Source: Spirochaetota bacterium
GTDB taxonomy: Bacteria > Spirochaetota > UBA6919 > CBDBPB01
Assembly (NCBI GenBank): GCA_965208615.1
Contig: CBDBPB010000001.1
Coordinates: forward strand, 64,001 to 128,000
DNA: 64,000 nt
Reading direction: 5' to 3'
Shown: in pieces, positions 4,223 through 59,991 of the stretch
Layout: every line of letters starts with the position of its first letter
Position numbering within the stretch: the first letter of the stretch is position 1
Made by a program: the position numbers and the translations under genes
Notes under the pieces: model-generated
The model's database searches: none
Told to the model about the DNA's origin: nothing
Seen by the model: only the letters and a program-made list of their open reading frames with translations

Positions 4223-5502
<1,280 letters not shown>

Positions 5503-6870: not shown

Positions 6871-6983
6871 GTTTTAAAGTCAAAAGATTTTAAATAGTCC
6901 GCCTATAGATTAGTAATTTTAAGTATAATAGGTTTATATATGTGTTAGAATATATAGCCGTCCTTTTTTATAAAGGAGATGTT

Positions 6984-9179
6984 ATGAAAAAGCTATTGTA
7001 TATCACATCTGTTATTTTATTGCTTTTTATATTTAGTCACAGCTGTACTAAAAAGCATATCAAACCACCTATAGAACATATTAGTAGTGCTAAGCTTGTA
7101 TTAAATCTTACTAATAAAGGATATTATATCACCACTAAGGAGGGCAAGGTAATTACTGAAAAAAAAGATAGGGTAATAAACTTATGGGACATTGACAACC
7201 GCAGTATAAAACCTATTAAAATTAGAGGTAACTATATTTATGATGCTTCATTTTCTCCTAATGGAAAGAAAATCATTATAGCAAGGAGCGATGGAAAGAT
7301 AACTTTATGGAATATAAAAGATTGTAATAAGTTTTATAATTTTGAAGGACATACAGGTAATGTTTTTAAAGCCATTTTTTTACGAAATAGTAAAAAGGCT
7401 ATTTCTGGCGGCGATGACGGCAGTATCAGAGTATGGGATACACTAAACCATAGACTAATAAAAACATTAAAGGGTCATTCATTTTTTATAAACTCTTTAT
7501 CATCCTCTCCAAAAAGTCATTATGCTGTATCAGGTGGTGCAGACAAGATCATCAGGCTATGGGATTTAAAAAAAGAAAAAGAAATTGCAAAACTAAAAAA
7601 GCATACTGGTACTATACTTAGTTTAGCTTTTTCTCCTGATGGAAATAGTATTATATCAGGGGGGAGTGATGGAAAGATAAATCTTTGGAGTATTAAAAAA
7701 AGACGTTTAATAAAAACTTTTAATGGTCATAATGGTTCTGTATTTGCGGTTTCCTTCATGCCAAAACATAATAGTATTATATCTGGCAGTGATGACGGAG
7801 ATATAAAAATATGGAATATAAATAATACTAAAACATTAAAAACTTTTAAAAGTAATTCTATGGTAAGAAGTGTATCTCCATCTAAGATTAGCAACAAGTT
7901 TTTATCAGCAGGAGGAGATAACCTTGTAAGGCTATGGAATACAAGTGGTTATCTTCCTAGTAAATCTATTAAGAGTAAAAAAGGGAATATTTATTCAGTA
8001 GCTATAACTCCCAAAGGTAATAAGGGAATATCGGGGAGCGAGGATGGTGAACTAAAAATATGGGACTTAAATAATGGAAATATTATTAAAACATTTAAGG
8101 CTCACTCAGGTTCTATATTTAGTGTAGCCTTATCTCCCGATGGAAAAACTGCATTGACTGGTGGAAGTGATAGTTTGGTTAAGCTTTGGGATCTAAAAAA
8201 CTATAAGCTTGTTAAAACTTTTAAAGGACATACTGGTATTGTTTATAGTACTACTTTTTCTCCCGATGGAAAAACTGCTCTAACTGGAAGCTTTGATAAA
8301 ACTATAAAACTATGGGATTTAAATAATAAGAAATTAATAAGAACTTTTAAAGGCCATACTTATAGGGTATCCAGTGTTACTTTTTCTCCAGACGGAAAAA
8401 CAGCTCTATCTGGCAGTGAGTCTATTATACTCTGGGATGTATCTACTGGTAGTATTATAAGAAAGTTTAAAGGGTATTTTTATTTTTATCCCATTTCTAC
8501 TGTAGCCTTTTCTCCCGATGGTAAAACTGCAGTATCTGGCGGAGCAGATAAAAATATTAGACTTTGGAATGTTAAGACTGGTAGTACTATTAAAATATTT
8601 AGAGGTCATTCCAGCGATATTAGTAGTGTAATATTCACTTCTGATGGGACTAAGATTATATCCGGCAGTAGGGATAAAACTATAAAGCTCTGGAATATTA
8701 AAACTGGAAAGCTCATTAAAACTCTAAAGGGCCATGATGCTCATGTACACAGTATTGCAGCCACTCCTGATGGTAAGAAGTTTATATCAGGAAGTTCCGA
8801 TAAGAAAATTAACATTTGGAATTTAGAAAAAATGAAAAAGAGTATAAGGCTTTTTAAAGGTCATACTTCTTTAGTTTTTAATGCTTTATTTTCTCCCAAT
8901 GAGAAGTTTATTATATCCTCCAGCATGGACGGAACCATAAAACTATGGAATCTTAAGACTAACTTTGTAACTACACTATATCATATTAGGTGGATAGAAC
9001 AAAAAAAGAGATATTCCGAGTGGATAATAGTATCCTCAGATGGATATTGGACTTCTTCAAAATGTAAAAACACTCAGATTAGTAAAATCAATGATAATAG
9101 GCTAAAGCACAGAAAAAAGACAATGTCTATTAAGGATAACCGTTCAGATATTATATTAAGACGTATAAATAAAAACTAA
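6984..9179 (+). CDS. WD40-repeat lipoprotein (about 15 repeats, probably a double beta-propeller)
   Basis: Repeated GH...FSPDG...SGS.D..IKLW[DN] units. AAGGAG then ATG at 6984; signal peptide ending SHSC. Confidence 0.9.
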   Translation: MKKLLYITSVILLLFIFSHSCTKKHIKPPIEHISSAKLVLNLTNKGYYITTKEGKVITEKKDRVINLWDIDNRSIKPIKIRGNYIYDASFSPNGKKIIIARSDGKITLWNIKDCNKFYNFEGHTGNVFKAIFLRNSKKAISGGDDGSIRVWDTLNHRLIKTLKGHSFFINSLSSSPKSHYAVSGGADKIIRLWDLKKEKEIAKLKKHTGTILSLAFSPDGNSIISGGSDGKINLWSIKKRRLIKTFNGHNGSVFAVSFMPKHNSIISGSDDGDIKIWNINNTKTLKTFKSNSMVRSVSPSKISNKFLSAGGDNLVRLWNTSGYLPSKSIKSKKGNIYSVAITPKGNKGISGSEDGELKIWDLNNGNIIKTFKAHSGSIFSVALSPDGKTALTGGSDSLVKLWDLKNYKLVKTFKGHTGIVYSTTFSPDGKTALTGSFDKTIKLWDLNNKKLIRTFKGHTYRVSSVTFSPDGKTALSGSESIILWDVSTGSIIRKFKGYFYFYPISTVAFSPDGKTAVSGGADKNIRLWNVKTGSTIKIFRGHSSDISSVIFTSDGTKIISGSRDKTIKLWNIKTGKLIKTLKGHDAHVHSIAATPDGKKFISGSSDKKINIWNLEKMKKSIRLFKGHTSLVFNALFSPNEKFIISSSMDGTIKLWNLKTNFVTTLYHIRWIEQKKRYSEWIIVSSDGYWTSSKCKNTQISKINDNRLKHRKKTMSIKDNRSDIILRRINKN

Positions 9180-18232: not shown

Positions 18233-19765
18233 TTATGGCTTAAGGAGCTTCTTTATTTCGTCAGTTTTTGCTATATCAAGTGGAGTTCTGCCTTTTTTAT
18301 CTTTTATATTAATATTGGCTCCTTTAGATAGTAATAATTTAACAACCTTTGGACGTTCATATTTAACAGCCATAAATAAAGGAGTTTTGCCTTTTTTATC
18401 TTTTTTATTAATCTTAGCTCCTTTAGACAGCATCATGCTAACAAACTCTGCCTTTCCATATTTAGAAGCCACATGTAAAGAAGTTTTGCCATGTTTTTTA
18501 CTTGCGGCATTAACCTTAGCCCCTTTAGATATTAATAATAGTCCAGTCTTTGTATGCCCATGTTCAGCGGCCTCATATAGAGGAGCGTTACCCTTCTTTA
18601 CAGTTGCTACATTAACTTTAGCCCCTTTAGATATTAATAACTTAGCTACCTCTGTCTTTCCAAACTCACTAGCCACATGTAAAGGGGTCCAACCACGATT
18701 TTCTTTTGCATTGACCTTAGCCTTATTAGATATTAATGATTTGGTTATCTTTACATCCCCCCAAAAAGAGGCCCTATGTAAAGGTGTATAACCGGTTTTA
18801 TCCTTTGCATTAACATTGGCTCTATTAGATATTAATAGATTAACAATTTCTGGAAGTTCGCTAATAACAGCCAGATGTAAAGGAGAGTTACCAAGAGCAT
18901 CTGCTGCATTAACATCGGCTTTTTTAGATATTAATAATTTAACAGCCTTTGAACGTCCATGTTGAACAGCCATCAATAAAGGAGTTCTGCTTTTTTTATC
19001 TTTTTTATTAACCTCAGCTCCTTTAGATAGTAATAAGCTAATAACCTTAGTTTTTCCATACTTAGAAGCCACATGTAAAGAAGTTTTGCCATGCTTTTTA
19101 CTTGCTCCATTAATCTTAGCTCCTTTAGATAATAAAAACTTGATTACTTCTATATGTCCATGCTCAGCGGCCTCATATAAAGGAGCGTTACCCTTTTTAG
19201 TCTCTATATCAACCTCAACGCCCTTATCTATTAATAATTTGACTACCTCTAACTTTCCAAACTCACCAGCTATATGTAAAGGACTCCAGCCACGATCATC
19301 AGGCTCAGCAACCTTAGCACCTTTATCTACTAATAACTTGGCAGTATTTATATCTCCACTATTAGCAACCCTATGTAAAGGAGTATTACCGGTTTTATCT
19401 TTTGCATTAACTTCAGCTCCTTTATTTATTAATAACTTGGCAACTTCTGGATGCCTACTAATAATAGCATTATGTAAAGGAGTATTACCAAATTCACCTA
19501 CTGCATTAACCCCAGCTCCCTTAGAAAGTAATAGTTGAGCTATCTTCATATCACCATTACCAGCAGCCATGTGTAAAAAAGTATTACCATTTTTGTCTGA
19601 TACATTAACCTCAGCTCCTTCACTTATTAACTTTTCTACTATTTTATAGTCGTTAGCTAAATTGTTAGTACTACTTTTAGATACTGATGTCTTTTTTGAT
19701 TGTCCACAATTTAGTACTAACGAAAAAGTTAACAAAAAGGTAATCACTGTGAGTAATTTTTTCAT
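18233..19765 (-). CDS. Ankyrin-repeat lipoprotein (about 14 repeats)
   Basis: GxTPLH...LLxKGAxVN repeats, signal peptide ending LVLNC, AGGAGG RBS. Confidence 0.93.
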   Translation of the reverse strand: MKKLLTVITFLLTFSLVLNCGQSKKTSVSKSSTNNLANDYKIVEKLISEGAEVNVSDKNGNTFLHMAAGNGDMKIAQLLLSKGAGVNAVGEFGNTPLHNAIISRHPEVAKLLINKGAEVNAKDKTGNTPLHRVANSGDINTAKLLVDKGAKVAEPDDRGWSPLHIAGEFGKLEVVKLLIDKGVEVDIETKKGNAPLYEAAEHGHIEVIKFLLSKGAKINGASKKHGKTSLHVASKYGKTKVISLLLSKGAEVNKKDKKSRTPLLMAVQHGRSKAVKLLISKKADVNAADALGNSPLHLAVISELPEIVNLLISNRANVNAKDKTGYTPLHRASFWGDVKITKSLISNKAKVNAKENRGWTPLHVASEFGKTEVAKLLISKGAKVNVATVKKGNAPLYEAAEHGHTKTGLLLISKGAKVNAASKKHGKTSLHVASKYGKAEFVSMMLSKGAKINKKDKKGKTPLFMAVKYERPKVVKLLLSKGANINIKDKKGRTPLDIAKTDEIKKLLKP

Positions 19766-23701: not shown

Positions 23702-24607
23702 TTATAACTTAAATAAACTGGGCTCATCCTCAAGGCTTATCCTTTGTTTAGCTAACTTTGCATAATCAATATCAACTTCATAGCCAATAAAAAACCTATC
23801 CGACTTAAGAGATGCTATGGCAGTTTGTCCACTGCCAATAAACGGATCTAGTATAACCTCATCCTTAAAAGTATAGAGCTGAATACACCTATAGGGTAAC
23901 TCTATAGGGAAAGGTGCTGGATGACCTATCTTCTTTGCCGATACAGTTGGAAAGGTCCAAACACTTTTTGTGTACTCTAAAAACTCATCCTTGGTTATAG
24001 TATTGACTTTATCCCTCTTTTCTCTTTTAAAATTGCCCTTTGAAAATATTAAAATATATTCATGAACATCCCTCAAAGTCGGATTAGATGCAGATTGCCA
24101 ACTACCCCATGCAGTAGATGTTCCACTACTAGCCCCCTTATTCCATATTACCTCGCCCCTCATTAAAAAACCAACTTTTAACATATCCTCAATAATAAAA
24201 CTATGTAGTGGTATATATGGCTTTCTTCCAACATTAGCAATGTTAATACAAACCCTTGCACCCCATACAAGAACTCTATAACACTCCCTCCATATCGCTA
24301 TTAGGAAATCTCTATACTCATTTAAGGTTATATCACTATCATAGTCTTTACCAACATTATATGGTGGTGAGGTTACCATTAAATGAATAGAATTATCAGG
24401 CAACTCTTTCATATCCTCACTAGATGAGTCAATAATACTATTTAAATACTTTTTATCTATTACATTCTCAGTCTGACTACACGGTAAGCCTACTTGATTT
24501 ATATTCTCATAAAGCTTACTGTCATAAAACTTCGATGAATCATGTCCAATACGCTTGGATACACCAAAAGAACTCGTTTTGGTATTTCTTATATTACCTT
24601 TAGCCAT
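23702..24607 (-). CDS. Beta-class N4-cytosine/N6-adenine DNA methyltransferase, cognate to the adjacent endonuclease
   Basis: TSPPY precedes HPAPFP and DPFIGSG. ATG at 24607 overlaps the endonuclease stop (TAATG). Confidence 0.92.
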   Translation of the reverse strand: MAKGNIRNTKTSSFGVSKRIGHDSSKFYDSKLYENINQVGLPCSQTENVIDKKYLNSIIDSSSEDMKELPDNSIHLMVTSPPYNVGKDYDSDITLNEYRDFLIAIWRECYRVLVWGARVCINIANVGRKPYIPLHSFIIEDMLKVGFLMRGEVIWNKGASSGTSTAWGSWQSASNPTLRDVHEYILIFSKGNFKREKRDKVNTITKDEFLEYTKSVWTFPTVSAKKIGHPAPFPIELPYRCIQLYTFKDEVILDPFIGSGQTAIASLKSDRFFIGYEVDIDYAKLAKQRISLEDEPSLFKL

Positions 24608-25239
24608 TAGTCTTGCTCCCATAGTTTAATCCAACGTTTGTATAAGTTAAAGTCTATTTTTGACCTTATCCACTCTATATTTATGCTTTTTGTCTCTCTG
24701 TCATTAATAAGATCAATTAACGCTTCCTTACTAATCTCAATTCCTCTGGGATTAGTACCCTTTTTAGGAACTTTAATATATTTATCCTTGCCAAGTTTTT
24801 TAAATATACGCTTTTGAACATCTATCGGTATATAAAATAGTCCTCCTTGTTTATTCCAGTTTATTTGAACAAGTAACATATCTACTTTTGGATAATAGCT
24901 TTTAATAAACTCTTCTACCTTTTTATAATCAACAGTCCAAATTATCTTAACCCCAGTTAAGGTGTTTGTAGTAATAGTCTTTATTGATATAGGCTTTCCA
25001 AAAGCTCTAAAATCTACTTCAGACTCAGTTATAGGTATATTAGTCTCTATATTTTTATCACCGAATTTATAAATCAACAATGCTATTATAATAGCCTCTC
25101 TTATTGAACCGACCTCCATACCAATTTTACCAGCCCTTGAACTCTCAAGCTCGGCAAGCTGAAACATTTTAGGCAACCTTAACTTAACCTTTTTAACTAT
25201 TTCTTTATCATAAAATAAAGCTTTAATACCTTCTCTCAC
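24607..25239 (-). CDS. ThaI-family type II restriction endonuclease
   Basis: AELESSRAGKIGMEVGSIRE, D..ISIKT (PD-(D/E)xK-like), GTNPRGIE; coupled to a methyltransferase. Family recalled, not searched. Confidence 0.8.
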   Translation of the reverse strand: MREGIKALFYDKEIVKKVKLRLPKMFQLAELESSRAGKIGMEVGSIREAIIIALLIYKFGDKNIETNIPITESEVDFRAFGKPISIKTITTNTLTGVKIIWTVDYKKVEEFIKSYYPKVDMLLVQINWNKQGGLFYIPIDVQKRIFKKLGKDKYIKVPKKGTNPRGIEISKEALIDLINDRETKSINIEWIRSKIDFNLYKRWIKLWEQD

Positions 25240-28446: not shown

Positions 28447-29896
28447 TTAATGAAAAAAGTCCTCTTCAAACTCAGCTTTTCTATTTAGCCTTTCAGCCTT
28501 CTTATGATAATCCATAATGAGGGGGAGTTGTGGCTTTTTACCATCAAGCAACTCCTCAATAGTAAATATTTGTATTTTAGGATAGCGATTATTTAACCCT
28601 GTTGAGTCATAATAGCCCTTTTTAACCGCCTCAGTGATCATTGCTTTAGTAGGCTCTTGCATACAAATGAAAATGCCAATCTCTGCCTTTTCCCTATCAA
28701 TAACATGACATAAGTCCCTAATTTGTGCAACAGTAGGCTTACTAGCCACCTTACCACCCTTAACCTGTACAATAGCTTTTTTATTAAGTATCTTTTTATT
28801 TTCACCATAGTCATTAAAGTAAATATAACCATCAATCCCACCATCAGCCCCCTTCTTTTTATCACCATAAGGCCTTGCATTAACCAATGAACAAGCCCAC
28901 CACTGAAATTGATATTTATTCTGATCAGATAAAGCTTGTACACCAGATATGTCCTCTGGTTCGCCTATGACCCTATAGTCCTTTTTAACCTCTAAGCTGG
29001 ACATATCTTTAAGCCTCCACTTCATTAAATTAACAGCCAAATGGGTAATGTCTATACCTATCCACTTTCTTTTTAGCTTTTGAGCAGAGCATATTGTTGT
29101 ACCACAACCACAAAATGGGTCTAATATAATATCCCCCTTGTTTGATGAGGCTTTTATAATCCTCTCTAATAAGGTAATGGGCTTTTGAGTAGGGTAGCCA
29201 AGCCTTTCTTTAGCCATAGTATTAACAGGTGATAAATCAATCCACCAATCATTATGAGAAGTTAAATCTTTTTTTTTATCATATTTAGTTCCATCACTAT
29301 GTATTCCAGAACCAGTTTGTGAATACTTTCTTAATGGAGGCTTGAAATAATAATTATGACTTTTTGAGTACCTTAATATTATATCATGCATTCTTTGAAA
29401 CTGTTTTTGAACATTCGTCCATCTTCTGTAATGCCATACAATTTCATTCCTAAAGTTCTTAACCCTGAATATAGTATCCATAAGTATTTTTAAATAATGA
29501 CTAGCCGTCGGATCGCAGTGTAGATAAATAGAACCAGTATCTTTCAAAACTCTCCTTAGCTCTATTAACCTAATACACATCATTGTAAGATAAGCCATCA
29601 TATCATTCTCTCTAATGAACTGCCTTAGAGCCCTAATCATCTCAACAACATCAGCAGGGGCACTATTAATTATATCCTGATATGCCCTTTCTGTTTGCTG
29701 AGTCCAATGCCATGTATCCTCAAAGGCAGTAATTTGCGCCTGTGAGGACTTATCTGTTGTTGGCTCCTTAAAATAAAATATTATAATTAGCCTTTGAGTT
29801 AAACGGCGGATCAAGATAAATTAAATCTATAGACTCATCCTTAATATAATTCCTTAATATATTTAAGTTATCACCATAGTATAAAGCGTTATCCAT
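28447..29896 (-). pseudogene. DNA adenine methyltransferase fused to an Mrr-like nuclease domain, frameshifted near the 5' end
   Basis: GAGG then ATG at 29896 gives MDNALYYGDNL...LIYLDPPFNSKANYNILF* (stop 29770-29768). Removing one T joins it to KEPT..., YPTQKP, DPFCGCGT, ADGGIDG..VQVKGG; repaired length 482 aa. Confidence 0.85.
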
Positions 29897-30938: not shown

Positions 30939-33578
30939 TCAATCTATATCAGAACCCTTTTTAGCCCCCTTAGACCTTAAGAGCTTAATAGTAGCTGTAT
31001 GCCCCTCTTCAATAGCCATGTCTAATGGAGTCTCACCATTCTTATTTTTAATATTAACATTAGCCCCCTTAGATATTAATAATCTAACTGTTTTTGTATG
31101 GCCACTAGAAGCAGCCCAATGTAAAGGAGTAAAGCCGTATTTATCTTGTACATTAACATTAGCACCCTTAGATATTAATAACTTAACAACCTTTGTACGC
31201 CCCTTTTCAATAGCACTATGTAAAGGAGTATAGCCGTATTTATTTACTACATTAACATTAGCACCCTTAGATATTAATAACTTAACAACCTTTGTACGCC
31301 CCTTTTCAATAGCACTATGTAAAGGAGTATAGCCGTATTTATCTTTTACATTAACATTAGCACCCTTGGATATTAATAACTTAACAATCTTTGTACGCCC
31401 CTTTTCAATAGCCCAACTTAAAGGAGTCCAGCCATATTTACTTACTCCATTAACATTAGCCCCCTTAGATATTAATAACTTAACAACCTTTGTACGCCCC
31501 CTTTCAATAGCCCTATGTAAAGGAGTATAGCCATTTTTACTTGCTACATTAACATTAGCACCCTTGGATATTAATAATCTAACTGTTTTTGTATGGCCAC
31601 TATCAGCAGCCCAATGTAAAGGAGTATAGCCATCTTTACCTGCTAAATTAACCTTAGCACCCTTAGATATTAACAACTTAACAACCTTTGTACGCCCTTC
31701 TATAGCAGCCCTATGTAAAGGAGTAAAGCCAAATATACTTACTACATTAACCTTAGCACCCTTAGATATTAATAATCTAACTGTTTTTGTATGGCCACTA
31801 TCAGCAGCCCTATGTAAAGGAGTAAAGCCGTATTTATCTTGTACATTAACATTAGCACCCTTAGATATTAATAATCTAACTGTTTTTGTATGCCCCCTAT
31901 CAGCAGCCTCATGTAAAGGAGTAAAGCCGTATTTATTTACTACATTAACCTTAGCACCCTTAGATATTAATAGTCTAACTGTTTTTGTATGCCCCTTTTC
32001 AGCAGCCCTATGTAAAGGAGTATAGCCATCTTTACCTGCTAAATTAACCTTAGCACCATTAGATATTAACAACTTAACAACCTTTGTACGCCCTTTTAGA
32101 GCAGCCCTATGTAAAGGAGTAAAGCCAAATATACTTACTAGATTAACCTTAGCACCCTTAGATATTAATAATCTAGCTGTTTTTGTATGTCCCTTTTCAG
32201 CAGCCCTATGTAAAGGAGTATAGCCAAATATACTTACTACATTAACCTTAGCACCCTTAGATATTAATAATCTAACTGTTTTTGTATGCCCCCTATCAGC
32301 AGCCACTTGTAGAGGAGCAACCCCATTTTCACCTTCTGCATTAACCTTAGCACCACTAGATATTAATAATCTAACTATTTTTGTATGCCCCCTATCAGCA
32401 GCCACTTGTAGAGGAGAAACCCTATTTTTACCTTCTGCATTAACCTTAGCACCACTAGATATTAATAATCTAACTATTTTTGTATGCCCCCTATAAGCAG
32501 CCCTATGTAAAGGAGTAAAGCCAAATGTACTTACTGCGTTAACATTAGCACCCTTAGATATTAATAATCTAACTGTTTTTGTATGCCCCCTATCAGCAGC
32601 CCTATGTAAAGGAGTAACGTCATATTTATTTACTCCATTAATCTTAGCCCCCTTAGATATTAATAACTTAATAGAATCAGTATGTCTATTTTGAGTAGCA
32701 AGATGTAAAGGAGTCTTGTCATATTTATTTACTCCACTAATCTTAGCCCCCTTAGATATTAATAACTTAATAATCTCAGTATGCCCCCTATAAGCAGCCC
32801 TATGTAAAGGAGTATTGCCTTTTTTATCTGCTAAATTAACATTAGCCCCCTTAGATATTAATAACTTAACAATCTCAGCACGCCCTCTAGAAACAGCCTC
32901 ACGTAAAGGAGTATAGCCTTTTTTATCTGCTAAATTAACATTAGCCCCCTTAGATATTAATAACTTAACAACCTTTGTACGCCCCTTTTCAATAGCACTA
33001 TGTAAAGGAGTATTGCCATTTTTACTTGCTACATTAACATTAGCCCCCTTAGATATTAATAGTCTAACTGTTTTTGTATGCCCCCTATCAGCAGCCCAAT
33101 GTAAAGGAGTAAAGCCAAACATACTTACTAAATTAGTCTTAGCACCCTTAGATATTAATAATCTAACTATTTTTGTATGGCCACTAGAAGCAGCCCAATG
33201 TAAAGGAGTAACGCCAAACATACCTACTACATTAACATTAGCACCCTTAGATATTAATAACTTAACTGTTTTTGTATGGCCATTTTTAGAAGCATAATGT
33301 AAAGGAGTATAGCTTATTCCAACTCTTACTTCGTTAACCTTAGCACCCTTAGATATTAATAATCTAACTATTTTTGTATGGCCACTAGAAGCAGCCTCAT
33401 GTAAAGGAGTATTGCCATAATATATACTTAGTCCATTAGCCTTAGCACCTTTTGCTATTAAGTCCTTTACTCTATTATAGTCACCAGCCTTGACAGCTTC
33501 ACGAAGGTCATTATTAACATTCGCTAATAAAACCCCCTGTAAAACTAATAAACATATTACTATAAATAGCTTTTTCAT
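30939..33578 (-). CDS. Secreted ankyrin-repeat protein (N-cap plus 25 repeats)
   Basis: 33-aa GxTPLHxA..G.TK.V.LLISKGA.VN units with 99-bp DNA periodicity; signal peptide; AAGGAG RBS. Confidence 0.95.
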   Translation of the reverse strand: MKKLFIVICLLVLQGVLLANVNNDLREAVKAGDYNRVKDLIAKGAKANGLSIYYGNTPLHEAASSGHTKIVRLLISKGAKVNEVRVGISYTPLHYASKNGHTKTVKLLISKGANVNVVGMFGVTPLHWAASSGHTKIVRLLISKGAKTNLVSMFGFTPLHWAADRGHTKTVRLLISKGANVNVASKNGNTPLHSAIEKGRTKVVKLLISKGANVNLADKKGYTPLREAVSRGRAEIVKLLISKGANVNLADKKGNTPLHRAAYRGHTEIIKLLISKGAKISGVNKYDKTPLHLATQNRHTDSIKLLISKGAKINGVNKYDVTPLHRAADRGHTKTVRLLISKGANVNAVSTFGFTPLHRAAYRGHTKIVRLLISSGAKVNAEGKNRVSPLQVAADRGHTKIVRLLISSGAKVNAEGENGVAPLQVAADRGHTKTVRLLISKGAKVNVVSIFGYTPLHRAAEKGHTKTARLLISKGAKVNLVSIFGFTPLHRAALKGRTKVVKLLISNGAKVNLAGKDGYTPLHRAAEKGHTKTVRLLISKGAKVNVVNKYGFTPLHEAADRGHTKTVRLLISKGANVNVQDKYGFTPLHRAADSGHTKTVRLLISKGAKVNVVSIFGFTPLHRAAIEGRTKVVKLLISKGAKVNLAGKDGYTPLHWAADSGHTKTVRLLISKGANVNVASKNGYTPLHRAIERGRTKVVKLLISKGANVNGVSKYGWTPLSWAIEKGRTKIVKLLISKGANVNVKDKYGYTPLHSAIEKGRTKVVKLLISKGANVNVVNKYGYTPLHSAIEKGRTKVVKLLISKGANVNVQDKYGFTPLHWAASSGHTKTVRLLISKGANVNIKNKNGETPLDMAIEEGHTATIKLLRSKGAKKGSDID

Positions 33579-49070: not shown

Positions 49071-50831
49071 TTATTTTTTTAGTCGTGGATCAATAGCTTC
49101 TCTTATGGCGTCTCCTAACAGGTTATACGTTGTAACTGATATGAATATTGCAAATCCTGGTACTAATGAAAGCCACCAATAGTTTAAAACATCGCTTTGA
49201 CCCATACTAATCATTTGTCCCCAACTGGGATTAGGGTCTTGTACACCAAAGCCTAAAAAGCTTAAACCTGCTTCTATTAACATGGCTGATGCTATACCAA
49301 ATGCGGCTGACACTAAAACAGGAGTTAGGGAGTTGGGTAATATATGTTTAAATATAATACTTAAATTGGATACGCCTAATGCCTTAGCCGCTGTTACAAA
49401 CTCTTGATTTCGTAGTTTTAAGAACTCTGCTCTGGTAAGCCTTGCTATCCCTGTCCAGCTTGTTAAGCCTATTATAACCATAATCTTCATAATACTTGGT
49501 CCTAAAAATGCGATTATTGTTAATATCAAAAAGAAACTTGGAAAGCATATTACAATCTCTATGAATCTGGATATTATAATATCTACCCATCCACCGAAGT
49601 ATCCCGCTAAGGCACCAATAATAATACCGATTATAACGTATATAGACACAGCAACAAACCCAACCGATAAAGATACCCTCGCACCCCATATCATCCGTGA
49701 TAACACATCACGCCCAGTGTGGTCAGTACCCAATATATGTCTACCGTAATTATTGTCTGATATATATTTTAGTATACTGGGTTTTTGATATTTCTCTTCT
49801 AAGAAGTTTTCATTAAATCCAAAGGGTACCATTGGGAAAATAGCGTAGTCATTAGTCGACGACTTAATTATCATATTTTTATAGTTAATGGGTATTTGGG
49901 GGTCAGAGTTTAATATTAAAAGCATACATGGTAGTGTTATCCATATTATTAGGGTTATATATATTATTCGCCTTTTTGTAATTTTATTATGGCTAAGTTT
50001 AAATGCTATTCTTTTAACTATGGGGAAAATAAGTATAAACAACAATCCCATCATAAAAATAACGTCTAATATAGATAGGCTTGAGAATGCAGGAAAGGTT
50101 AATTTTTTAACCAGTTCTTTTTCTACTTTGCCAAAGGATAGGGTATTTACTATTTCTTTTTTAATATTACCCAGTTTTATAGCGGTATTAATATTTTTAT
50201 CTTTGAATATTAGTTTATACTTGTCTTTAATTTTATCAATATGCTTATTTAGTTTTTCGGACAGAGGGAACTTAAGTTTATCGAGGTTATATATTATTAG
50301 TTTGGCATTTTTATTTTTGTTTAGCTTATGATCTATCTCTATTAGGCTTATATTAAGTTGTTCTTTTTGGCTATACTTTTTAACCCGTTTTTGTTTTAGG
50401 GATAGTATTTTAGCTCCTATTTTCTTCTTTTGATTTTTGAGGTCTTTGTTATTAGCGTTTTCATTGATTAGCTCTCTTAGTCTTTCTTCTTTATTTGTTA
50501 ACCGATCCTTTTGTTGATTGAGCTTATGTATGACATTTTTGAGCAGGTTAAACTCTTTATTAGCCTTATTTTTTTGTTTAGTTAGTTCATTTTGTTTTGG
50601 GCGATTATTTACATATACGTTATGGGCTCTTTCCCACGCTGGATAGTAATACTTATAATACTCACCGTAGTTAGTGTATAGAATTAGAGGTTTATCATTG
50701 GCTAACAGGGGAGCAAATATGGCTATAAAGAAAAATATAAATATTATCCACAAGGATATTATGGCAGACTTCTTTTTTTTAAGCTGTTTTAATACTATAT
50801 TTAGATAAGAGTTATTTTCTTTATGAATCAT
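49071..50831 (-). CDS. oppC: OppC/DppC-family permease with a large coiled-coil insertion
   Basis: APLLANDKP, about 200 aa of K/N/E heptads, then GTDHTGRDV, FVTAAKALG, PSWG, GDAIREAIDP. Confidence 0.88.
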   Translation of the reverse strand: MIHKENNSYLNIVLKQLKKKKSAIISLWIIFIFFFIAIFAPLLANDKPLILYTNYGEYYKYYYPAWERAHNVYVNNRPKQNELTKQKNKANKEFNLLKNVIHKLNQQKDRLTNKEERLRELINENANNKDLKNQKKKIGAKILSLKQKRVKKYSQKEQLNISLIEIDHKLNKNKNAKLIIYNLDKLKFPLSEKLNKHIDKIKDKYKLIFKDKNINTAIKLGNIKKEIVNTLSFGKVEKELVKKLTFPAFSSLSILDVIFMMGLLFILIFPIVKRIAFKLSHNKITKRRIIYITLIIWITLPCMLLILNSDPQIPINYKNMIIKSSTNDYAIFPMVPFGFNENFLEEKYQKPSILKYISDNNYGRHILGTDHTGRDVLSRMIWGARVSLSVGFVAVSIYVIIGIIIGALAGYFGGWVDIIISRFIEIVICFPSFFLILTIIAFLGPSIMKIMVIIGLTSWTGIARLTRAEFLKLRNQEFVTAAKALGVSNLSIIFKHILPNSLTPVLVSAAFGIASAMLIEAGLSFLGFGVQDPNPSWGQMISMGQSDVLNYWWLSLVPGFAIFISVTTYNLLGDAIREAIDPRLKK

Positions 50832-53233: not shown

Positions 53234-55027
53234 TTAGAATATAATTATTTGAAAGTTTTTATTACTCTCCAAAAGCTTTTCAATTTTATCCACATACTCA
53301 CTACTATTTTCCCTCAGTCTATGAGGAAGATAAATGACTAACAGCGAAGGAACATAGCTTTCACCGTTAATACACAGCTTAAAAAGGGTTAAATAAAAGC
53401 ATATTACAAAAATATCCTTTTGGTAGTCTGTTAGATCATTAAAGCTAACTACCCTTTTTTCGTAGGATATCTTTAGCATATACAACCTATTAAAGCTTAT
53501 TGAGTAAACCTTAGGAAAACCAAAATAGTTTAGATTATTTTTTAGACATTCAAAGAAATTTAATAATATTTTCTTATGCTCTAACTCATAACTATCCCTT
53601 AGAATATCCATACACCGTATTACAGTTTTTCTCTCTTCGTTTAATGGTCTTTTAAATAATGCCTCGTCAATGATAAGGTCATGGAATGCGTTGAGCTCTA
53701 TTATATACTTATAATTTTTACTTATTAGTTCTTTTATATTTTGGTCTATAGAACTAATATCCAGCTCAATATCTTTTATGGTTTTACTATTTTTACACTT
53801 TATATTTTCTATACTTTTATTTTTCTTATTTTGTAGATCGGCTATATTTTCATTTAATACGTTGATCTTAGAAAGATTAATATAATAGTTTGCAATAAGT
53901 TGTTCAATTTTTTCTGAGTCAATATCACTAAGTATATTAGGCTTTTTAAATAGGTTAAACTGTTTATTATTTAGGTCGATTTGTTTATTAGTTTTTTCTG
54001 ATTTAAACTCTCCTCCAAGCTGTTGTATTTCTTTTAGGATTAATAATTCTTTAGTTTTTAATTTATATAGTTTATGGGTTAGCTCAGTTATTTCATGTTC
54101 TATTTTTTTTTCTGTATTAAGGTGGAACTCTTCATCAGCCATAGTAACTATAGATTTTTTCAAGTCTTTTAGTGAGTTCTTTCTTTTTATCAGGTTAAAA
54201 AAGCGTTTTTCCCAACCTATTAAGTTATCTTCATTTGTTTGGAATACCCTATTAGTAATATTATTTTTTAGTTTACTGGCTGTTTGTATATAAAAGTCAT
54301 TTTCTGATATTCGTGTTTGAAAAAAAGAGATAGCTGGTATTCCTTTCAGCCCTAGTATCACCTGCATAGCTCTTTTTCGCCAATAATTGCTCTGTTTTTC
54401 ACAGAAGAGCTTGTATGGTCTTTTTTCATCTATAAAAAACATATTTAGGTATGTGGCAAAGGTTATTGGATGAGCTATAAGTCTTTTATTAGCGTATGAG
54501 GCATTCATAAGAAATGGAAGACATAACTTATTACTAAAAAAGCTTTTCAGTTGATATTCTATATCCTTAAGCCCCTTTCCTTTAATAAGCGGAGAACTAT
54601 ATTTTGATAATTGGGATATTAAAGATGGATATATTGCTAAACTTCTTTTCTCAACAAGGTTAATATTAATAGTATATATTTCTTTTTTTAGTTTAAACTC
54701 CATTAATATGTTATTTATTAGTTTTTTTGAGCTATTTGATAGGTCATTCTTTCCGGTAAGACAAAGTTTGATTATATACTGACAATCATATTCTTTTAAC
54801 TTATTATTATCTATAAGGTTATTAACACCTTTATTAAATTTAAGGTCTAGGATATCACCTAGTTTTATTCTTTGCAAGAGTAGATTAGAGGATCCATTTT
54901 TGTAATAATCCTCAAGTTGAGGATAAAAAAGTTCCCACTTCTTCATAAGAAAAGGAAAAGGTGAGATATAGTTTTCTAGATCATTTATAATTTTGATATT
55001 GTCCATAATGGTAAATAACTTTATCAA
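53234..55027 (-). CDS. Hypothetical coiled-coil protein with a degenerate SMC/ABC-ATPase-like C-terminus
   Basis: Long heptad region, then FNDLTDYQK..F...L, PSLLVIYLP and FQIIIF. No Walker A seen; start is TTG 55027 or ATG 55006. Confidence 0.55.
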   Translation of the reverse strand: MIKLFTIMDNIKIINDLENYISPFPFLMKKWELFYPQLEDYYKNGSSNLLLQRIKLGDILDLKFNKGVNNLIDNNKLKEYDCQYIIKLCLTGKNDLSNSSKKLINNILMEFKLKKEIYTININLVEKRSLAIYPSLISQLSKYSSPLIKGKGLKDIEYQLKSFFSNKLCLPFLMNASYANKRLIAHPITFATYLNMFFIDEKRPYKLFCEKQSNYWRKRAMQVILGLKGIPAISFFQTRISENDFYIQTASKLKNNITNRVFQTNEDNLIGWEKRFFNLIKRKNSLKDLKKSIVTMADEEFHLNTEKKIEHEITELTHKLYKLKTKELLILKEIQQLGGEFKSEKTNKQIDLNNKQFNLFKKPNILSDIDSEKIEQLIANYYINLSKINVLNENIADLQNKKNKSIENIKCKNSKTIKDIELDISSIDQNIKELISKNYKYIIELNAFHDLIIDEALFKRPLNEERKTVIRCMDILRDSYELEHKKILLNFFECLKNNLNYFGFPKVYSISFNRLYMLKISYEKRVVSFNDLTDYQKDIFVICFYLTLFKLCINGESYVPSLLVIYLPHRLRENSSEYVDKIEKLLESNKNFQIIIF

Positions 55028-55384: not shown

Positions 55385-56518
55385 ATGAAAGAAGGTTATA
55401 CAGAAATCAGCCTGGAACACATTGCAGTAAACTCTACCTTGGCATATCCTATATACGACAAGGATGATAATGAAATACTACCTGGGCATACAATTCTAAC
55501 AAAAGAAAAAATAAACTCTCTTATAAAATCCGGAATTACAAAAGTATATTATTTAAAAGAAGCCTTTAACAAAAAAAAGTCCGCAATTAAAACTTATTTG
55601 AATAAGAATAGTTATACTGGTCCTAGGTCAATAAGCTCAAAAACACAAAATAAAGGCATAAACTTAATGGGTGACCTAGTTGATGCCATTAAAAACTATT
55701 TGATAGACTTTAAGTCGGATGACCTTAATGAACTAGTTAATGCCATAAATAAAGACCTTGATGAAAATCAACAAGAAGTCGTTAACCTATTAGACGTTAT
55801 TGATTTTGATGATTATACATATACCCATTCTTTAAATGTTGGCATTATATCTATGGTTTTCGCAAGGAACAATAGATTACCAAAAGACGTTATAAGAGAT
55901 ATTGGAATAGGCGGCTTTTTGCACGATATAGGAAAAATAAGGCTTCCAAAAGAAATTGTGAATAAAACTGAAGAATTAACTCCTCAAGAATATACCCTAT
56001 TACAAGAACATAGCCTAATAGGTTATGATATTATAAAAAATGACTACTTCTTTAGCGACTTGGTCAAAGAAATAGTATTATCCCACCATGAACGCAAGGA
56101 TGGAAACGGATATCCTAATAAACTTTCAGGAAAAGAAATTAGTAATGAAATAGAAATTGTATCCTTAGCTGATCTGTTTGACTCTCTTACAACTGAAAAA
56201 CCATATAGAAAATCCATAGATACTAGGACTGCACTAGAACAAATGTTAACTTATACTAATCTTTTTAGTAAAACATTATTAAAACAGTTTGTAAAAGATA
56301 TGGTTATAGTATTCAGAGAAAGTAACTTTTATCCAGTAGGTAGTTATGTCATTCTTAATACCAATGAACTGGCTAATGTTATTACCATTGACAAAACTAA
56401 CTTTTTTCGTCCAACTATTAATATAATAAGCAATCAACATGGTAAAAGACTTAATAAGCCTATCTCAGTTGACCTCAAAATTGACTATTCTCGTAATATC
56501 ATAAAACGAATAGGTTAA
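55385..56518 (+). CDS. HD-GYP domain cyclic-dinucleotide phosphodiesterase
   Basis: YTYTHSLNV, LHDIGK, HHERKDGNGYP, AD.FDSLT..KPYR. Confidence 0.92.
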   Translation: MKEGYTEISLEHIAVNSTLAYPIYDKDDNEILPGHTILTKEKINSLIKSGITKVYYLKEAFNKKKSAIKTYLNKNSYTGPRSISSKTQNKGINLMGDLVDAIKNYLIDFKSDDLNELVNAINKDLDENQQEVVNLLDVIDFDDYTYTHSLNVGIISMVFARNNRLPKDVIRDIGIGGFLHDIGKIRLPKEIVNKTEELTPQEYTLLQEHSLIGYDIIKNDYFFSDLVKEIVLSHHERKDGNGYPNKLSGKEISNEIEIVSLADLFDSLTTEKPYRKSIDTRTALEQMLTYTNLFSKTLLKQFVKDMVIVFRESNFYPVGSYVILNTNELANVITIDKTNFFRPTINIISNQHGKRLNKPISVDLKIDYSRNIIKRIG

Positions 56519-56591: not shown

Positions 56592-57866
56592 ATGATTAGG
56601 CATTGTCTTTACTGTATAGTTATAGTATCTTTTTATACTTATTTTATACCTTCTTATTTATGGTCTAATAGCTATATTTTATATCCTAGGTTAGAAAGTG
56701 GTAATAATATAGGAGAGGTATATGGTTCTAGCTTTTTTATTCCAAAATATGAAATCTTTACATTCTCATCCTTCGTAACAAGCGATTTTAAGAATAGACT
56801 CGAATATGGTATACTATCAACCCTATCTTATGAACCCTATGGTACAATATCTATAGGGTTTAGCGAAAAAAACTCCCATAATAAAGCTTATAAAGAATCG
56901 TCAATCAACCTGTCATACCAAAAAAGATGGAACATAGCTAACTTTATTATAGGAGCTAACTTTTCTGACCCTATACACTCAAAGGCATTTGAATTTAATA
57001 ATCCCCTTCTATACTCAATGAATATAGCCATACAAATAGAAGCTACACCAGATATACTAATAGAAATAGGCGCTACTAACCTATTTAAAAAATATGATAG
57101 TATAGTCAACGATAACAGTGAAGAATTCTATACTTCCGTATCCCTTATGCTAATAGAAAGCCTTGCAGTAAAAATATCCATCCATAAATTCAAAAACAAT
57201 AGAGTAAATGCTAACTTCCTAACCAGATACTACATAACTAATAATATATTTGTGGGACTAAATCTATCAATCGAACCTTTAGTATTCAGCGTTAGTAGTG
57301 GACTATCCGCCTCATTTGGCTCCTTTAAGATATTTCTCGGTATGAATGAAAATAAAAACTTCTTTGGCCTACTCTCCTTTACTGTACCATATAACCATGA
57401 TCCAAAGCCTATTAAAAGCCATAACAATAAGGGTATAATAAATGATAAAAATCTAATAAATATTAATGCCGCAAATAATAAGCTATTAACCGTATTACCA
57501 GGAATCGGACAAAAAACTGCAAAACGTATAATAACCTATCGCAAAGAAAATAAAGGATTCTATTCTAAAGAAGAACTCATGATGGTTACTGGAATAGGTA
57601 TTAAAAAATATGAAAAGCTAAAAGACCTAATCACAATAGGTAATATAAATAAAACTAAACGCCTATCCAGCATAAAAAGATGGACAATGAAAGAGTTTAT
57701 TGATATTGGTTTTTCTCCATCACTTTCTTTGAAGATAGTCCTATTAATCAGAAATAAGTCAGCCTTTACTAGATTAGAAGACCTTTTAAAAATTAAAAAC
57801 TTTAATAATACTAAACTAATCCACCTTAAAAAAAGGCTAACACAATATGACAATAATAAAAATTAA
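56592..57866 (+). CDS. Predicted beta-barrel protein with C-terminal ComEA-type helix-hairpin-helix domains
   Basis: Signal-like N-terminus, amphipathic beta-strands, then ININAA...LPGIGQKTAKRII.YR...F.S.EEL..VTGIG and a second degenerate module. Confidence 0.8.
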   Translation: MIRHCLYCIVIVSFYTYFIPSYLWSNSYILYPRLESGNNIGEVYGSSFFIPKYEIFTFSSFVTSDFKNRLEYGILSTLSYEPYGTISIGFSEKNSHNKAYKESSINLSYQKRWNIANFIIGANFSDPIHSKAFEFNNPLLYSMNIAIQIEATPDILIEIGATNLFKKYDSIVNDNSEEFYTSVSLMLIESLAVKISIHKFKNNRVNANFLTRYYITNNIFVGLNLSIEPLVFSVSSGLSASFGSFKIFLGMNENKNFFGLLSFTVPYNHDPKPIKSHNNKGIINDKNLININAANNKLLTVLPGIGQKTAKRIITYRKENKGFYSKEELMMVTGIGIKKYEKLKDLITIGNINKTKRLSSIKRWTMKEFIDIGFSPSLSLKIVLLIRNKSAFTRLEDLLKIKNFNNTKLIHLKKRLTQYDNNKN

Positions 57867-59991
57867 AATAATAATAATATTTAGCATACTTATATGCAAT
57901 ATTGTCTATCCCATTGTAGCTATTAATAAACACTACCTCCAAGTAATGTTCTATAAGCCAATACCAATGAATATTAACTCAGAAAAAGAAGTTATATTTA
58001 GACTAAAATCAATAGGACTCTCAAAAAGTAAAATATCCATTATTACAAAATATCTTAAACAAAATAAAACAATATCTTTTAAAAAACTCTACCAAAAAGG
58101 AATAATAAACTATAACGAAAGCAAAATATTAAAAAACTTCTTCTTTGATCCTAACAAAAATAAGGATTATATCTTCGAAAGTAAAAACGAAAATGAGGAA
58201 TATAACGATAATACCACTTCAGAACAAAATATCAACCTAAATAAACTTAAAAAAGAAACTATATTAAACCTAAGCTTTATATCCAAAAAACAAGTTAATA
58301 GCATTATCAAATATAAAAAAAGTATTAAAAGATATACCTCCGTTTATGAGCTATTACTAATACCCAACATAAATAGAAAAACTTTTATTAAGTTAATGCC
58401 CTATCTCAAAAATCTAAAACTGAATAAAAAGAAATTAAAAAACTTTATAGAAACAAGATATAAAAAAACTAACAAGGCAAATAGAACCTACTATATATAC
58501 AACAGAATAAATATTGTCAATGATAACATAGAACTTAATATATCACTAAGTAAAAATGACTGGCAAGAAGGAACTTATCCCGGTAGCCTTATATCAAAAA
58601 AACTTAGTTGGATGGATATATATAGCCAATATAGTATGGGACTATACATAAAAACAAATCTCTTATCTATTATAGCCATAGGGGACTACTCCCTTAGATT
58701 TGGACAACATCTGTTATTCGGTATTCCATACACAAACTATCTGGATAGAATAGATTATCATCCAATTAAAAAACGGGATAGCGGTATTCATAAATATACT
58801 AATCCAAATAGATTTGGAGTGCTTAGGGGATTAGCAGTTACTTTTAGCATAAATCAGTTCGAGTTAACCCCTTTTGTTTATTTTAACGACTACAAACTAA
58901 AAAATACTAGATTTATAAATAATGTTGTAAATACAAACGTAGAAAGCCTTATTAATACAGGATACGGCATAATAAACGATAAAAGAGATAGTAAAAGATT
59001 ATTAGAAAGTGGTGGGGGAGCTAATCTGACATATAAAGTAAATAATAATCTTAAAGTTGGACTAACTTATGCTTTCAATCACTACTCCCAAAAGATAGGT
59101 CCAAAGACTAACAAGAATAATAACTTATTTAGTGGGAATAAATTACACTTGTCATCAGTCTATTTTGACTGGGATATTATTGATAACTTTAATCTATTCA
59201 GCGAGATTGCACTATCCATCCACAAAGATATTACTAATAAAAATATTATTGGTTTAGGTGCGGTTATAGGGGCTATATTAAATAACAATATTCTTAAATA
59301 CTCATTTTTAATAAGATACCTTGATAGTAAGTTCCACTCGCCCCACTCGAGTAACGTAATAAGCAAACGTAATAACGAAGTAGGACTATTCCAAGGAATA
59401 GAGGTTAAACCTTATAACAAACTACTTTTTAGAATTTATATTGACCTTTTTAAATACCTCGATCAAAAGCCCTTTAATGTAATATTTAGCCTTAAAACAA
59501 GTTATAATCCAAATGGTCTGCTTTTAGTCTACCTTTTTACTATAACAGATAAACCATATTATAGTAAGCGTAGAACCAGAATTAAAAACCAACTAAACCT
59601 TGAATATCACATTAATAAATATGTCTCTTTTAGATTTAGGTATGAAAATATTATCTCTAAAAAAAGAAATGAGATCAATAATAATTATGGTAACCTTTTT
59701 TATACACAAATTAAAGTTAATATATTAAAAACCTTTATTATCATTACAAGAATAACAGCATACAGTGCCGATAATATAAGTTCAGCAGTCTATGCAGTAG
59801 AAAATAGATTACCCTTTTGGTATAACGGTATAAACTCTTATTATAACGACGGAATTAGTTATTGTCTAATACTAAAAACTAAGCTAAGAAAAGTACAAGC
59901 CGGTATTAAACTAGAAATAGACCACAGAAAAATAAAAAATAAAACTAATATTGCCAAAAGAGTCTTTTTACAACTGATATATAAATGGTAA
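57847..59991 (+). CDS. Helix-hairpin-helix plus outer-membrane beta-barrel protein
   Basis: INLN....E....LSFIS...V.SII.Y......TSVYEL..IP module, GDYSLRFGQ, LRGLA, many amphipathic strands, terminal FLQLIYKW beta-signal. Confidence 0.72.
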   Translation: MTIIKIKIIIIFSILICNIVYPIVAINKHYLQVMFYKPIPMNINSEKEVIFRLKSIGLSKSKISIITKYLKQNKTISFKKLYQKGIINYNESKILKNFFFDPNKNKDYIFESKNENEEYNDNTTSEQNINLNKLKKETILNLSFISKKQVNSIIKYKKSIKRYTSVYELLLIPNINRKTFIKLMPYLKNLKLNKKKLKNFIETRYKKTNKANRTYYIYNRINIVNDNIELNISLSKNDWQEGTYPGSLISKKLSWMDIYSQYSMGLYIKTNLLSIIAIGDYSLRFGQHLLFGIPYTNYLDRIDYHPIKKRDSGIHKYTNPNRFGVLRGLAVTFSINQFELTPFVYFNDYKLKNTRFINNVVNTNVESLINTGYGIINDKRDSKRLLESGGGANLTYKVNNNLKVGLTYAFNHYSQKIGPKTNKNNNLFSGNKLHLSSVYFDWDIIDNFNLFSEIALSIHKDITNKNIIGLGAVIGAILNNNILKYSFLIRYLDSKFHSPHSSNVISKRNNEVGLFQGIEVKPYNKLLFRIYIDLFKYLDQKPFNVIFSLKTSYNPNGLLLVYLFTITDKPYYSKRRTRIKNQLNLEYHINKYVSFRFRYENIISKKRNEINNNYGNLFYTQIKVNILKTFIIITRITAYSADNISSAVYAVENRLPFWYNGINSYYNDGISYCLILKTKLRKVQAGIKLEIDHRKIKNKTNIAKRVFLQLIYKW

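Follow-up and report, generated by a model that had tools for sequence, protein, structure and literature searches.

A predicted outer-membrane barrel pair with ComEA-like modules in a Spirochaetota contig, a candidate for DNA import

ComEA is a small protein, soluble or held by a single anchor. For ComEA of Vibrio it has been reported that lysines next to the hairpin bind DNA, and a ratchet role was proposed (PMC3879209). The present study deals with a gene pair located on contig CBDBPB010000001.1 of a Spirochaetota bacterium (assembly GCA_965208615.1), within a stretch of 64,000 nucleotides (contig positions 64,001 to 128,000, hereafter the window). Gene 1 (protein P0001) and gene 2 (protein P0002) encode predicted outer-membrane barrels that carry helix-hairpin-helix (HhH) modules. 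An earlier note, made from the sequence alone, had described the pair and proposed that it captures or ratchets DNA; its observation was confirmed and its interpretation is partly supported. As in ComEA, residues 286-348 of gene 1 form a canonical (HhH)2 module, and the basic charge and the predicted periplasmic site of the modules would fit the ratchet role proposed for the Vibrio protein (PMC3879209). In contrast to ComEA, the modules are fused to outer-membrane barrels, and three of the four are divergent.

The step proposed for the pair, duplex DNA across the outer membrane to ComEA, is that of the PilQ secretin with the competence pilus. PilQ is, however, a multimeric secretin, whereas gene 2 encodes a predicted monomeric barrel, without a Secretin domain and without pilus genes nearby. 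Passage of DNA through outer-membrane barrels in the absence of a pilus, as would be the case here, has been proposed for DdbCD of Bacteroides, needed for DNA metabolism (PMC12478041), and for the TonB-dependent transporter of Riemerella with its DUF5689 lid (RA0C_RS04915/04920), essential for transformation (PMC8459023). Unlike DdbCD, the gene pair has no Plug, CarboxypepD_reg or DUF5689 domain, and TonB dependence is not evident; DdbCD uses a surface lid, whereas DNA binding in the gene pair would be periplasmic, by means of the HhH modules. To our knowledge, pilus-free passage of DNA through the outer membrane is known by one route, in Bacteroidota only, the TonB-dependent DdbCD/RA0C_RS04915-20 systems. 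If the reading preferred here is true, a conserved barrel pair with modules of ComEA type would provide a second candidate route, unlike the first in structure. Among the papers listed in a literature search on spirochaetes, none dealt with ComEA.

With respect to its architecture, the pair resembles systems in which a small barrel is combined with a much larger one, since SprA-PorV and BamA-BamG likewise consist of a small 14-strand barrel and a far larger partner. The solved type 9 translocon (entry 6h3i) includes PorV, and BamG is a FadL-like small barrel bound to the large barrel of BamA (PMC12611786). The most frequent partner of the gene 2 family, described below, is related to PorV/PorQ. 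Neither SprA nor BamA shows any Pfam sequence relation to gene 2, and we infer the docking of the gene 1 and gene 2 barrels by analogy. Even if DNA is not the substrate, what remains is an unstudied family of outer-membrane proteins, about 700 aa long and phylum-wide in occurrence, that have a PorV-like partner, and the pair would add a third example of a large barrel served by a small FadL-like one.

Predicted architecture of the gene pair

Coordinates of the genes, barrels and modules are given in Table 1. The two open reading frames (ORFs) and their overlap were found as the earlier note had stated. The N-termini of both proteins are hydrophobic (that of gene 1 judged by eye), and the domain matches of both genes are far beyond chance.

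Table 1. Features of the gene pair, in positions of the window.
Feature	Position	Strand	Description
Gene 1 (P0001)	56592..57866	+	424 aa, ATG start; signal-like N-terminus, predicted 14-strand barrel, two HhH-type modules
Gene 1 barrel	56757..57392	+	Residues 56-267, 14 predicted strands, FadL/PorV-like
Gene 1 HhH module 1	57447..57635	+	Residues 286-348, canonical ComEA type (LPGIG...VTGIG)
Gene 1 module 2	57645..57863	+	Residues 352-424, divergent HhH-type, conserved WTMKEF..GFSPSL motif
Gene 1/gene 2 overlap	57847..57866	+	20 nt shared
Gene 2 (P0002)	57847..59991	+	714 aa, ATG start; signal-like N-terminus, two HhH-type modules, large predicted barrel
Gene 2 N-terminal module	57952..58170	+	Residues 36-108, divergent HhH-type, in Spirochaetia members only
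Gene 2 HHH_3 module	58222..58407	+	Residues 126-187, without G-h-G hairpins
Gene 2 barrel	58441..59982	+	Residues 199-712, about 24 predicted strands, C-terminal ...LIYKW

The AlphaFold2 model of gene 1, obtained from a 3-sequence alignment, showed 14 strands in the barrel region followed by helices, at low confidence (predicted local distance difference test, pLDDT, 56.7; predicted template modelling score, pTM, 0.40). Foldseek comparison of this model with the Protein Data Bank (PDB) returned outer-membrane barrels exclusively (porins, OmpG, Omp33, FadL and PorV), and, among the matches listed, the top query-normalised template modelling (TM) score was that of PorV of the type 9 translocon (6h3i_F, 0.39). 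At this pLDDT the matches comprise the 14-strand OmpG and Omp33, PorV and FadL, but 16-strand porins too. Word-index searches with whole gene 1 or with residues 25-275 yielded no relative of the barrel part, and in the ESM Atlas residues 25-278 were placed near hypothetical proteins of 249-270 aa from the same superphylum, which is taken as a lead only.

Module 1 of gene 1 (LPGIGQKTAKRII...VTGIGIKKYEKL) matches Pfam HHH_3 (PF12836) with E 1.5e-19, and P0001 scores 76.1 bits against a gathering score of 27 bits, in agreement with the canonical ComEA module claimed previously. The solved ComEA chains 8dfk and 8dss align with this module, which keeps both G-h-G hairpins, the first of them followed by basic residues (LPGIGQK...VTGIGIKK); its GIG hairpins are conserved in 8/8 relatives. 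Module 2 matches HHH_3 at no better than E 0.015, but it was aligned by hhalign with the gene 2 HhH profile (80.7% probability, E 1.3e-5), and residues W364, M366, F369, G373 and P376 are invariant in 8/8 aligned relatives. The module, called degenerate in the earlier note, is a divergent one of HhH type; judging from its conservation, it is a working domain and not a decayed remnant.

The two modules of gene 2 had also been called ComEA-like, which holds for their kinship, although neither is canonical. That at residues 126-187 is an HHH_3 domain (35.9 bits against the Pfam cut-off of 27; E 1.9e-10 for the module alone), with FIS and IPN at the two GIG hairpin sites of ComEA when aligned to 8dss. 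The one at residues 36-108 gave no Pfam HHH match; from its hhalign match to the family HhH module (95.2%, E 2.7e-8, 42 columns) it appears to be a divergent copy of the latter. Both proteins therefore exceed the HHH_3 cut-off, but scores for the ComEA model TIGR01259 (64.4 bits for P0001 and 23.5 bits for P0002) are under its cut-off of 152.35.

For gene 2, AlphaFold2 with a 7-sequence alignment predicted about 24 long strands (pLDDT 66.4, pTM 0.52), and the aromatic C-terminal end noted before was confirmed. The best PDB folds were 24-strand ushers (FimD, E 1.4e-7, query-normalised TM 0.35, 9% identity), followed by TonB-dependent transporters (TM 0.26-0.29), SlpA and LptD, identity being 6-12% across all the matches listed. 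A TonB-dependent transporter, a secretin and a chaperone-usher usher were each rejected because their defining domains are absent: no Plug or TonB_dep_Rec match at E <= 1, no Secretin match and no Usher match were obtained with Pfam, the FimD barrel fold match being the sole link to the ushers.

The beta-rich regions, as the earlier note had supposed, are thus predicted to be outer-membrane barrels, AlphaFold2 and Foldseek having returned barrel proteins only. On the basis of these models, the genes very probably encode a conserved outer-membrane pair formed by a 14-strand and an approximately 24-strand barrel with HhH-type modules. In barrels with an even number of strands, both ends are as a rule periplasmic. 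Both predicted barrels are even-stranded, and therefore the modules at their ends, C-terminal to the gene 1 barrel and N-terminal to that of gene 2, should be located in the periplasm. DNA capture at the cell surface, as in one part of the former proposal, is for this reason unlikely, and a periplasmic ratchet would be the better form of the idea.

The gene 2 family and its upstream partners

A word-index search with gene 2 retrieved five proteins 37-43% identical, one of them named Spirochaetota, and one 22% identical. In addition, a motif scan ([LIV]GD[YF]x[LV][RN]FGQ) was carried out over one genome per GTDB species; 508 stretches matched, 318 of which encode a gene 2 relative. The best 80 of these 318, together with the window, constitute the 81 loci to which the counts below refer. 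Two of the 80 loci belong to Spirochaetia (L001 and L002), and the remainder to Bacteroidota, Ignavibacteriota, Chlorobiota and Balneolales, in line with the HhH-barrel proteins of Bacteroidota that the earlier note had mentioned, which were recovered by motif and profile searches. For either gene of the pair, the closest relatives are carried by contigs titled Spirochaetia.

All 80 loci and the window contain a member scoring > 80 bits with the family profile, and gene 2 is a full-length member, its match beginning with the HhH module and extending as far as the C-terminus. The residues G279, D280, F285, G286 and Q287 (motif G-D-x4-F-G-Q) are invariant in 71/71 aligned sequences, 56 of which end in F, W or Y; YA.EN is another invariant motif. 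In the ESM Atlas, P0002 was placed (score 0.98) beside clusters from Bacteroidota with lengths of 594-681 aa. For the non-spirochaete members, the alignment starts only at about profile position 105, and these members therefore have one HhH module, not two. In a quick, unrooted maximum-likelihood tree, the five spirochaete-type sequences grouped together with a support of 100, on a long branch (1.69) outside the separate clade of the other 66 sequences, which roughly follows taxonomy. Gene 2 thus shares with the family the GD..FGQ motif, the aromatic end and a small barrel gene upstream, whereas the Spirochaetia members differ in the extra N-terminal module, in basic rather than acidic modules and in a partner, gene 1, that carries a ComEA tandem. 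The family is large, unnamed and widespread, annotated but unstudied; among the papers listed by the full-text searches, none describes it or its PorV-like partner.

The pairing claimed previously is conserved. Genes of the two types overlap in 3/3 Spirochaetia loci; the gene 1 homologues of L001 and L002 are 434-439 aa long and 46-49% identical, and the overlaps with the gene 2 homologues are 23 nt and 14 nt, respectively. An ORF upstream of the gene 2 homologue is present in 79 of the 81 loci. Directly upstream, on the same strand, a protein of about 276 aa (cluster c1) is encoded in 54/79 loci, an Omp28-like lipoprotein in 9, gene 1 in 3, an LBF_2804-family protein in 3, purE in 3 and single other genes in the remaining loci. 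The c1 partner is present in 56/81 loci overall, and the ORFs as listed, with uncurated starts, overlap by 4 nt in 16 loci.

No Pfam family was found above the cut-off for c1. Matches to the NCBIfam PorV/PorQ family (PorV_fam, NF033709, cut-off 90 bits) were obtained for 51/55 c1 partners at E <= 1e-3 (best 1.5e-24), although three representatives scored singly (42, 67.3 and 75.1 bits) were all under the cut-off. The gene 1 barrel aligned weakly with the c1 family in hhalign (46% probability, E 2e-4, 147 collinear columns). Gene 1 is interpreted here as the positional counterpart of c1 with a gained ComEA-like tail, and probably its evolutionary counterpart as well.

These PorV_fam matches, together with the presence of PorV (6h3i_F) among the fold matches of gene 1, are what speaks for a role of the pair in type IX secretion (T9SS). 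Such a role is nevertheless considered highly improbable, as the three representatives fall below the cut-off, gene 1 itself has no PorV_fam match at E <= 1, and no T9SS gene was found among the recurrent neighbours or in the window. Furthermore, T9SS is described as specific to Bacteroidota and their superphylum, while the window is spirochaete-like, and HhH-barrel proteins are unmentioned in the T9SS literature searched.

The loci with an Omp28-like partner are of Ignavibacteria type (L012, L015, L020, L023, L032, L034, L037, L077 and L080). In these loci the lipoprotein stands in place of the PorV-like barrel, and therefore the partner slot is not fixed in the family. A DUF6029 porin-like protein precedes the lipoprotein in 7/9 of them.

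The fusion of a barrel with ComEA-type modules, as in gene 1, was found only in the three Spirochaetia loci and in a few database proteins. The gene 1 profile gave 57,167 matches at E <= 1e-3 against 1.84 billion representatives. Among the best 150, to which the following count is limited and in which barrel-only relatives would not be visible, nearly all were multi-HhH proteins and six were gene-1-like. P0015 is full-length; P0016, P0017 and P0019 are without the N-terminus; P0038 (193 aa) and P0051 (169 aa) have a hydrophobic N-terminus of their own followed by the two modules of gene 1. Given the existence of the last two, gene 1 looks like a small secreted ComEA-like protein joined to a barrel. 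P0038 and P0051 represent a distinct two-module ComEA-like type, with the motif WTMKEF..G[FL]SP in module 2. As far as these searches go, the joining of barrel and ComEA modules is limited to a small group of spirochaetes.

Possible role in DNA import and alternative functions

The reading tentatively preferred here, at a likelihood somewhat short of even, is that the pair forms an outer-membrane channel whose tethered, periplasm-facing ComEA-like modules pull in DNA. In this two-barrel module, the FadL/PorV-like barrel of gene 1 would dock on the wall of the approximately 24-strand barrel of gene 2, like PorV on SprA and BamG on BamA, and the large barrel would be the conduit. A barrel of 24 strands has sufficient width for duplex DNA. 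The HhH-type modules, four in all, strongly basic and two from each barrel, would hang into the periplasm, bind the DNA entering the pore and bias its movement inward, as a ComEA-type ratchet built into the channel and without need of a pilus or secretin; the imported DNA might be used for transformation or nucleotide salvage. Physical pairing, DNA binding and direction of transport are parts of the proposal that we infer. A complex prediction with gene 1 residues 45-424 (8-row alignment) and gene 2 residues 120-714 (71-row alignment) gave a score of 0.00 against a mark of 0.32, controls not having been run, and is neither for nor against binding. The more complete version, a self-contained DNA translocon independent of pilus and TonB, with the approximately 24-strand barrel as conduit, the PorV-like barrel as gate or buttress and up to four basic modules as ratchet, in which the widespread family of Bacteroidota and allies would be the ancestral channel to which the Spirochaetia lineage added DNA-binding modules, is regarded as unlikely.

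Import of DNA is favoured by the canonical ComEA-type module of gene 1, by the barrel predictions for both genes, by the conservation of the pair, by the precedents for small barrels bound to large ones, by the existence of P0038 and P0051 and, in a pattern lacking a control, by the recurrence of DNA-processing and nucleotide-salvage genes near the family members. The charge of the modules is likewise in its favour. The net charge per ~70 residues is +7 and +12 for the modules of gene 1 and +11 (36-108) and +12 (126-187) for those of gene 2, compared with a median of +0.2 per 69 residues in 13 other proteins of the window. The HhH module of gene 2 has a charge of +4 to +12 in the five spirochaete-type members. 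The gene 2 barrel is net positive in 62/66 non-spirochaete members (median +13) and reaches +41 in P0002, which would suit an anionic substrate, the value being given without an outer-membrane-protein baseline for these phyla.

Several observations, on the other hand, weigh against import of DNA. Just one of the four modules, module 1 of gene 1, keeps the G-h-G hairpins and the basic residues following them, so that the expression "up to four DNA-binding modules" in the earlier note was too strong. The first hairpin of the gene 2 family has the form L-x-[FL]-L-[TSN], followed mostly by D, P or E, and in the second one G occupies the first glycine site in 37/71 sequences and D the second G of ComEA in 40/71. 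The module is net negative in 53/66 non-spirochaete relatives (median -4), which speaks against an original role of the family in unspecific DNA binding. HhH-like folds are also present in proteins that are not known to bind DNA, such as those of Pfam T2SSK, which is among the weak matches to gene 1, and PsbU. The models of gene 1 and gene 2 are of low to middling confidence (pLDDT 56.7 and 66.4). Neither comEC, comF, dprA and pilQ nor type IX secretion genes nor, apart from the restriction-type enzymes named below, nuclease genes were found in the 64-kb window (Pfam, 50 ORFs), and the genes of DNA and nucleotide metabolism near the family members are mostly on the opposite strand, in a pattern without control. 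Finally, the outer-membrane transporter and the HhH protein reported from the one transposon screen for transformation genes in a Bacteroidota species are different ones (PMC8459023). That HhH protein, RA0C_RS02645 of Riemerella, is the only one shown to be needed for transformation in Bacteroidota; it is described as predicted periplasmic and as having three HhH domains, with one HhH domain at residues 236-301 (PMC8459023). From the sequences, the spirochaete pair could plausibly bind DNA without specificity, but it is doubtful that this was the original function of the family. For relatives of about 700 aa, the automatic name "ComEA family DNA-binding protein" may mislead, because their module is mostly acidic and has no DNA-binding hairpins.

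The main rival to DNA import is a transport or assembly module for another substrate, such as a lipid, a glycolipid or an anionic polymer, in which the modules, although descended from ComEA-like ancestors, would be structural or protein-binding. We consider it a serious possibility, little less likely than import of DNA. The absence of G-h-G hairpins from the gene 2 family and the acidic module of those 53 relatives speak for such a role, as does the FadL/PorV fold class of the partner (51/55 PorV_fam matches). Canonical FadL proteins transport hydrophobic molecules. BamG, which is FadL-like, works in protein assembly (PMC12611786); moreover, the upstream gene is an Omp28-like lipoprotein in nine Ignavibacteria-type loci and an LBF_2804-family gene in three, and the tree roughly tracks taxonomy in Bacteroidota and allies, as for a housekeeping envelope function. 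A non-DNA role is opposed, however, by the fully canonical ComEA module of the Spirochaetia gene 1, with GIG hairpins in 8/8 relatives, by the strongly basic character of all four modules of the window pair and by the recurrence of DNA and nucleotide genes nearby (uncontrolled).

As the sequence sets no direction, the domain evidence for import applies equally to outward handling of DNA, that is, release of extracellular DNA, loading of vesicles or anchoring of matrix DNA at the envelope, and the lack of adjacent inner-membrane import genes would be in accordance with it. Nevertheless, this explanation is judged very unlikely: an adjacent nuclease, ATPase or secretion gene is absent, and export by a ComEA tethered to a barrel has no precedent known to us. 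Characterised ComEA modules act on incoming DNA (PMC3879209).

Gene neighbourhood and other content of the window

Genes located within 8 kb of the gene 2 homologues were counted; the pattern was defined post hoc and is uncontrolled, and many of the loci are close relatives. The following were recorded: purE (15 loci), a phosphoribosyltransferase (13), adenylate kinase, adk (12), deoxynucleoside kinase, dNK (8), FolD (6), DprA (6, in four of them two genes downstream on the opposite strand), adenine deaminase (5, three convergent and 13-14 nt apart), a RecD/PIF1-like helicase (5, in three of them on the same strand and two genes upstream), a UvrD-type helicase with a weak PD-(D/E)XK match at E 0.006, below the cut-off (4), RecJ (3) and RecQ (3). 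In L002, CinA lies directly upstream of the gene 1 homologue. A theme of DNA processing and nucleotide salvage thus appears in several unrelated synteny types, with the same limits.

In loci L054, L058 and L067, the gene 2 homologue is preceded, on its own strand, by genes for the RecD/PIF1-like helicase and an LBF_2804-family protein, and an operon that includes a DNA helicase is possible there. In L076 (1674-2921), the gene immediately upstream of the gene 2 homologue is of NamZ/DUF1343 type; as only this locus shows it, coincidence is possible. The DUF1343 protein RA0C_RS09020 of Riemerella has been reported as essential for transformation (PMC8459023).

The window is AT-rich, with a GC content of 0.25-0.37 in 2-kb steps. 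Rfam and tRNA scans of the window gave no matches, and promoter and terminator counts were not above those of shuffled sequence. Upstream of the pair, on the same strand, there is a gene with an HD/HD_5 domain (55385..56518), which separates the pair from an ORF of 597 aa on the opposite strand (53234..55027) without Pfam match. Downstream, on the opposite strand, an AICARFT/IMPCHase-domain gene adjoins gene 2, and genes for the large and small subunits of an aconitase-family enzyme are also present.

ThiC is split, through a frameshift or a sequencing error, between two ORFs that overlap and differ in reading frame, 4413..5102 (matching profile positions 76-291) and 4945..5502 (283-419); in addition, the initial ~75 positions of the profile are absent. 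In an OppC-like permease (586 aa, 49071-50831), about 350 residues without Pfam match lie between the N-terminal transmembrane domain (8-47) and the permease domain (402-586). By Pfam, a DUF1577 protein is encoded in the window; this family has been described from Leptospira, and its presence, like the Spirochaetia contigs of the closest relatives, points to a spirochaete. On the reverse strand, a ThaI-type restriction endonuclease gene (24607..25239) overlaps that of an N6/N4 DNA methylase (23702..24622), and another methylase carries a fused nuclease domain of Mrr type (28447..29814). The window also encodes three large repeat proteins, at 6942-9179 (WD40, 745 aa), 18233-19765 (ankyrin, 510 aa) and 30939-33578 (ankyrin, 879 aa).

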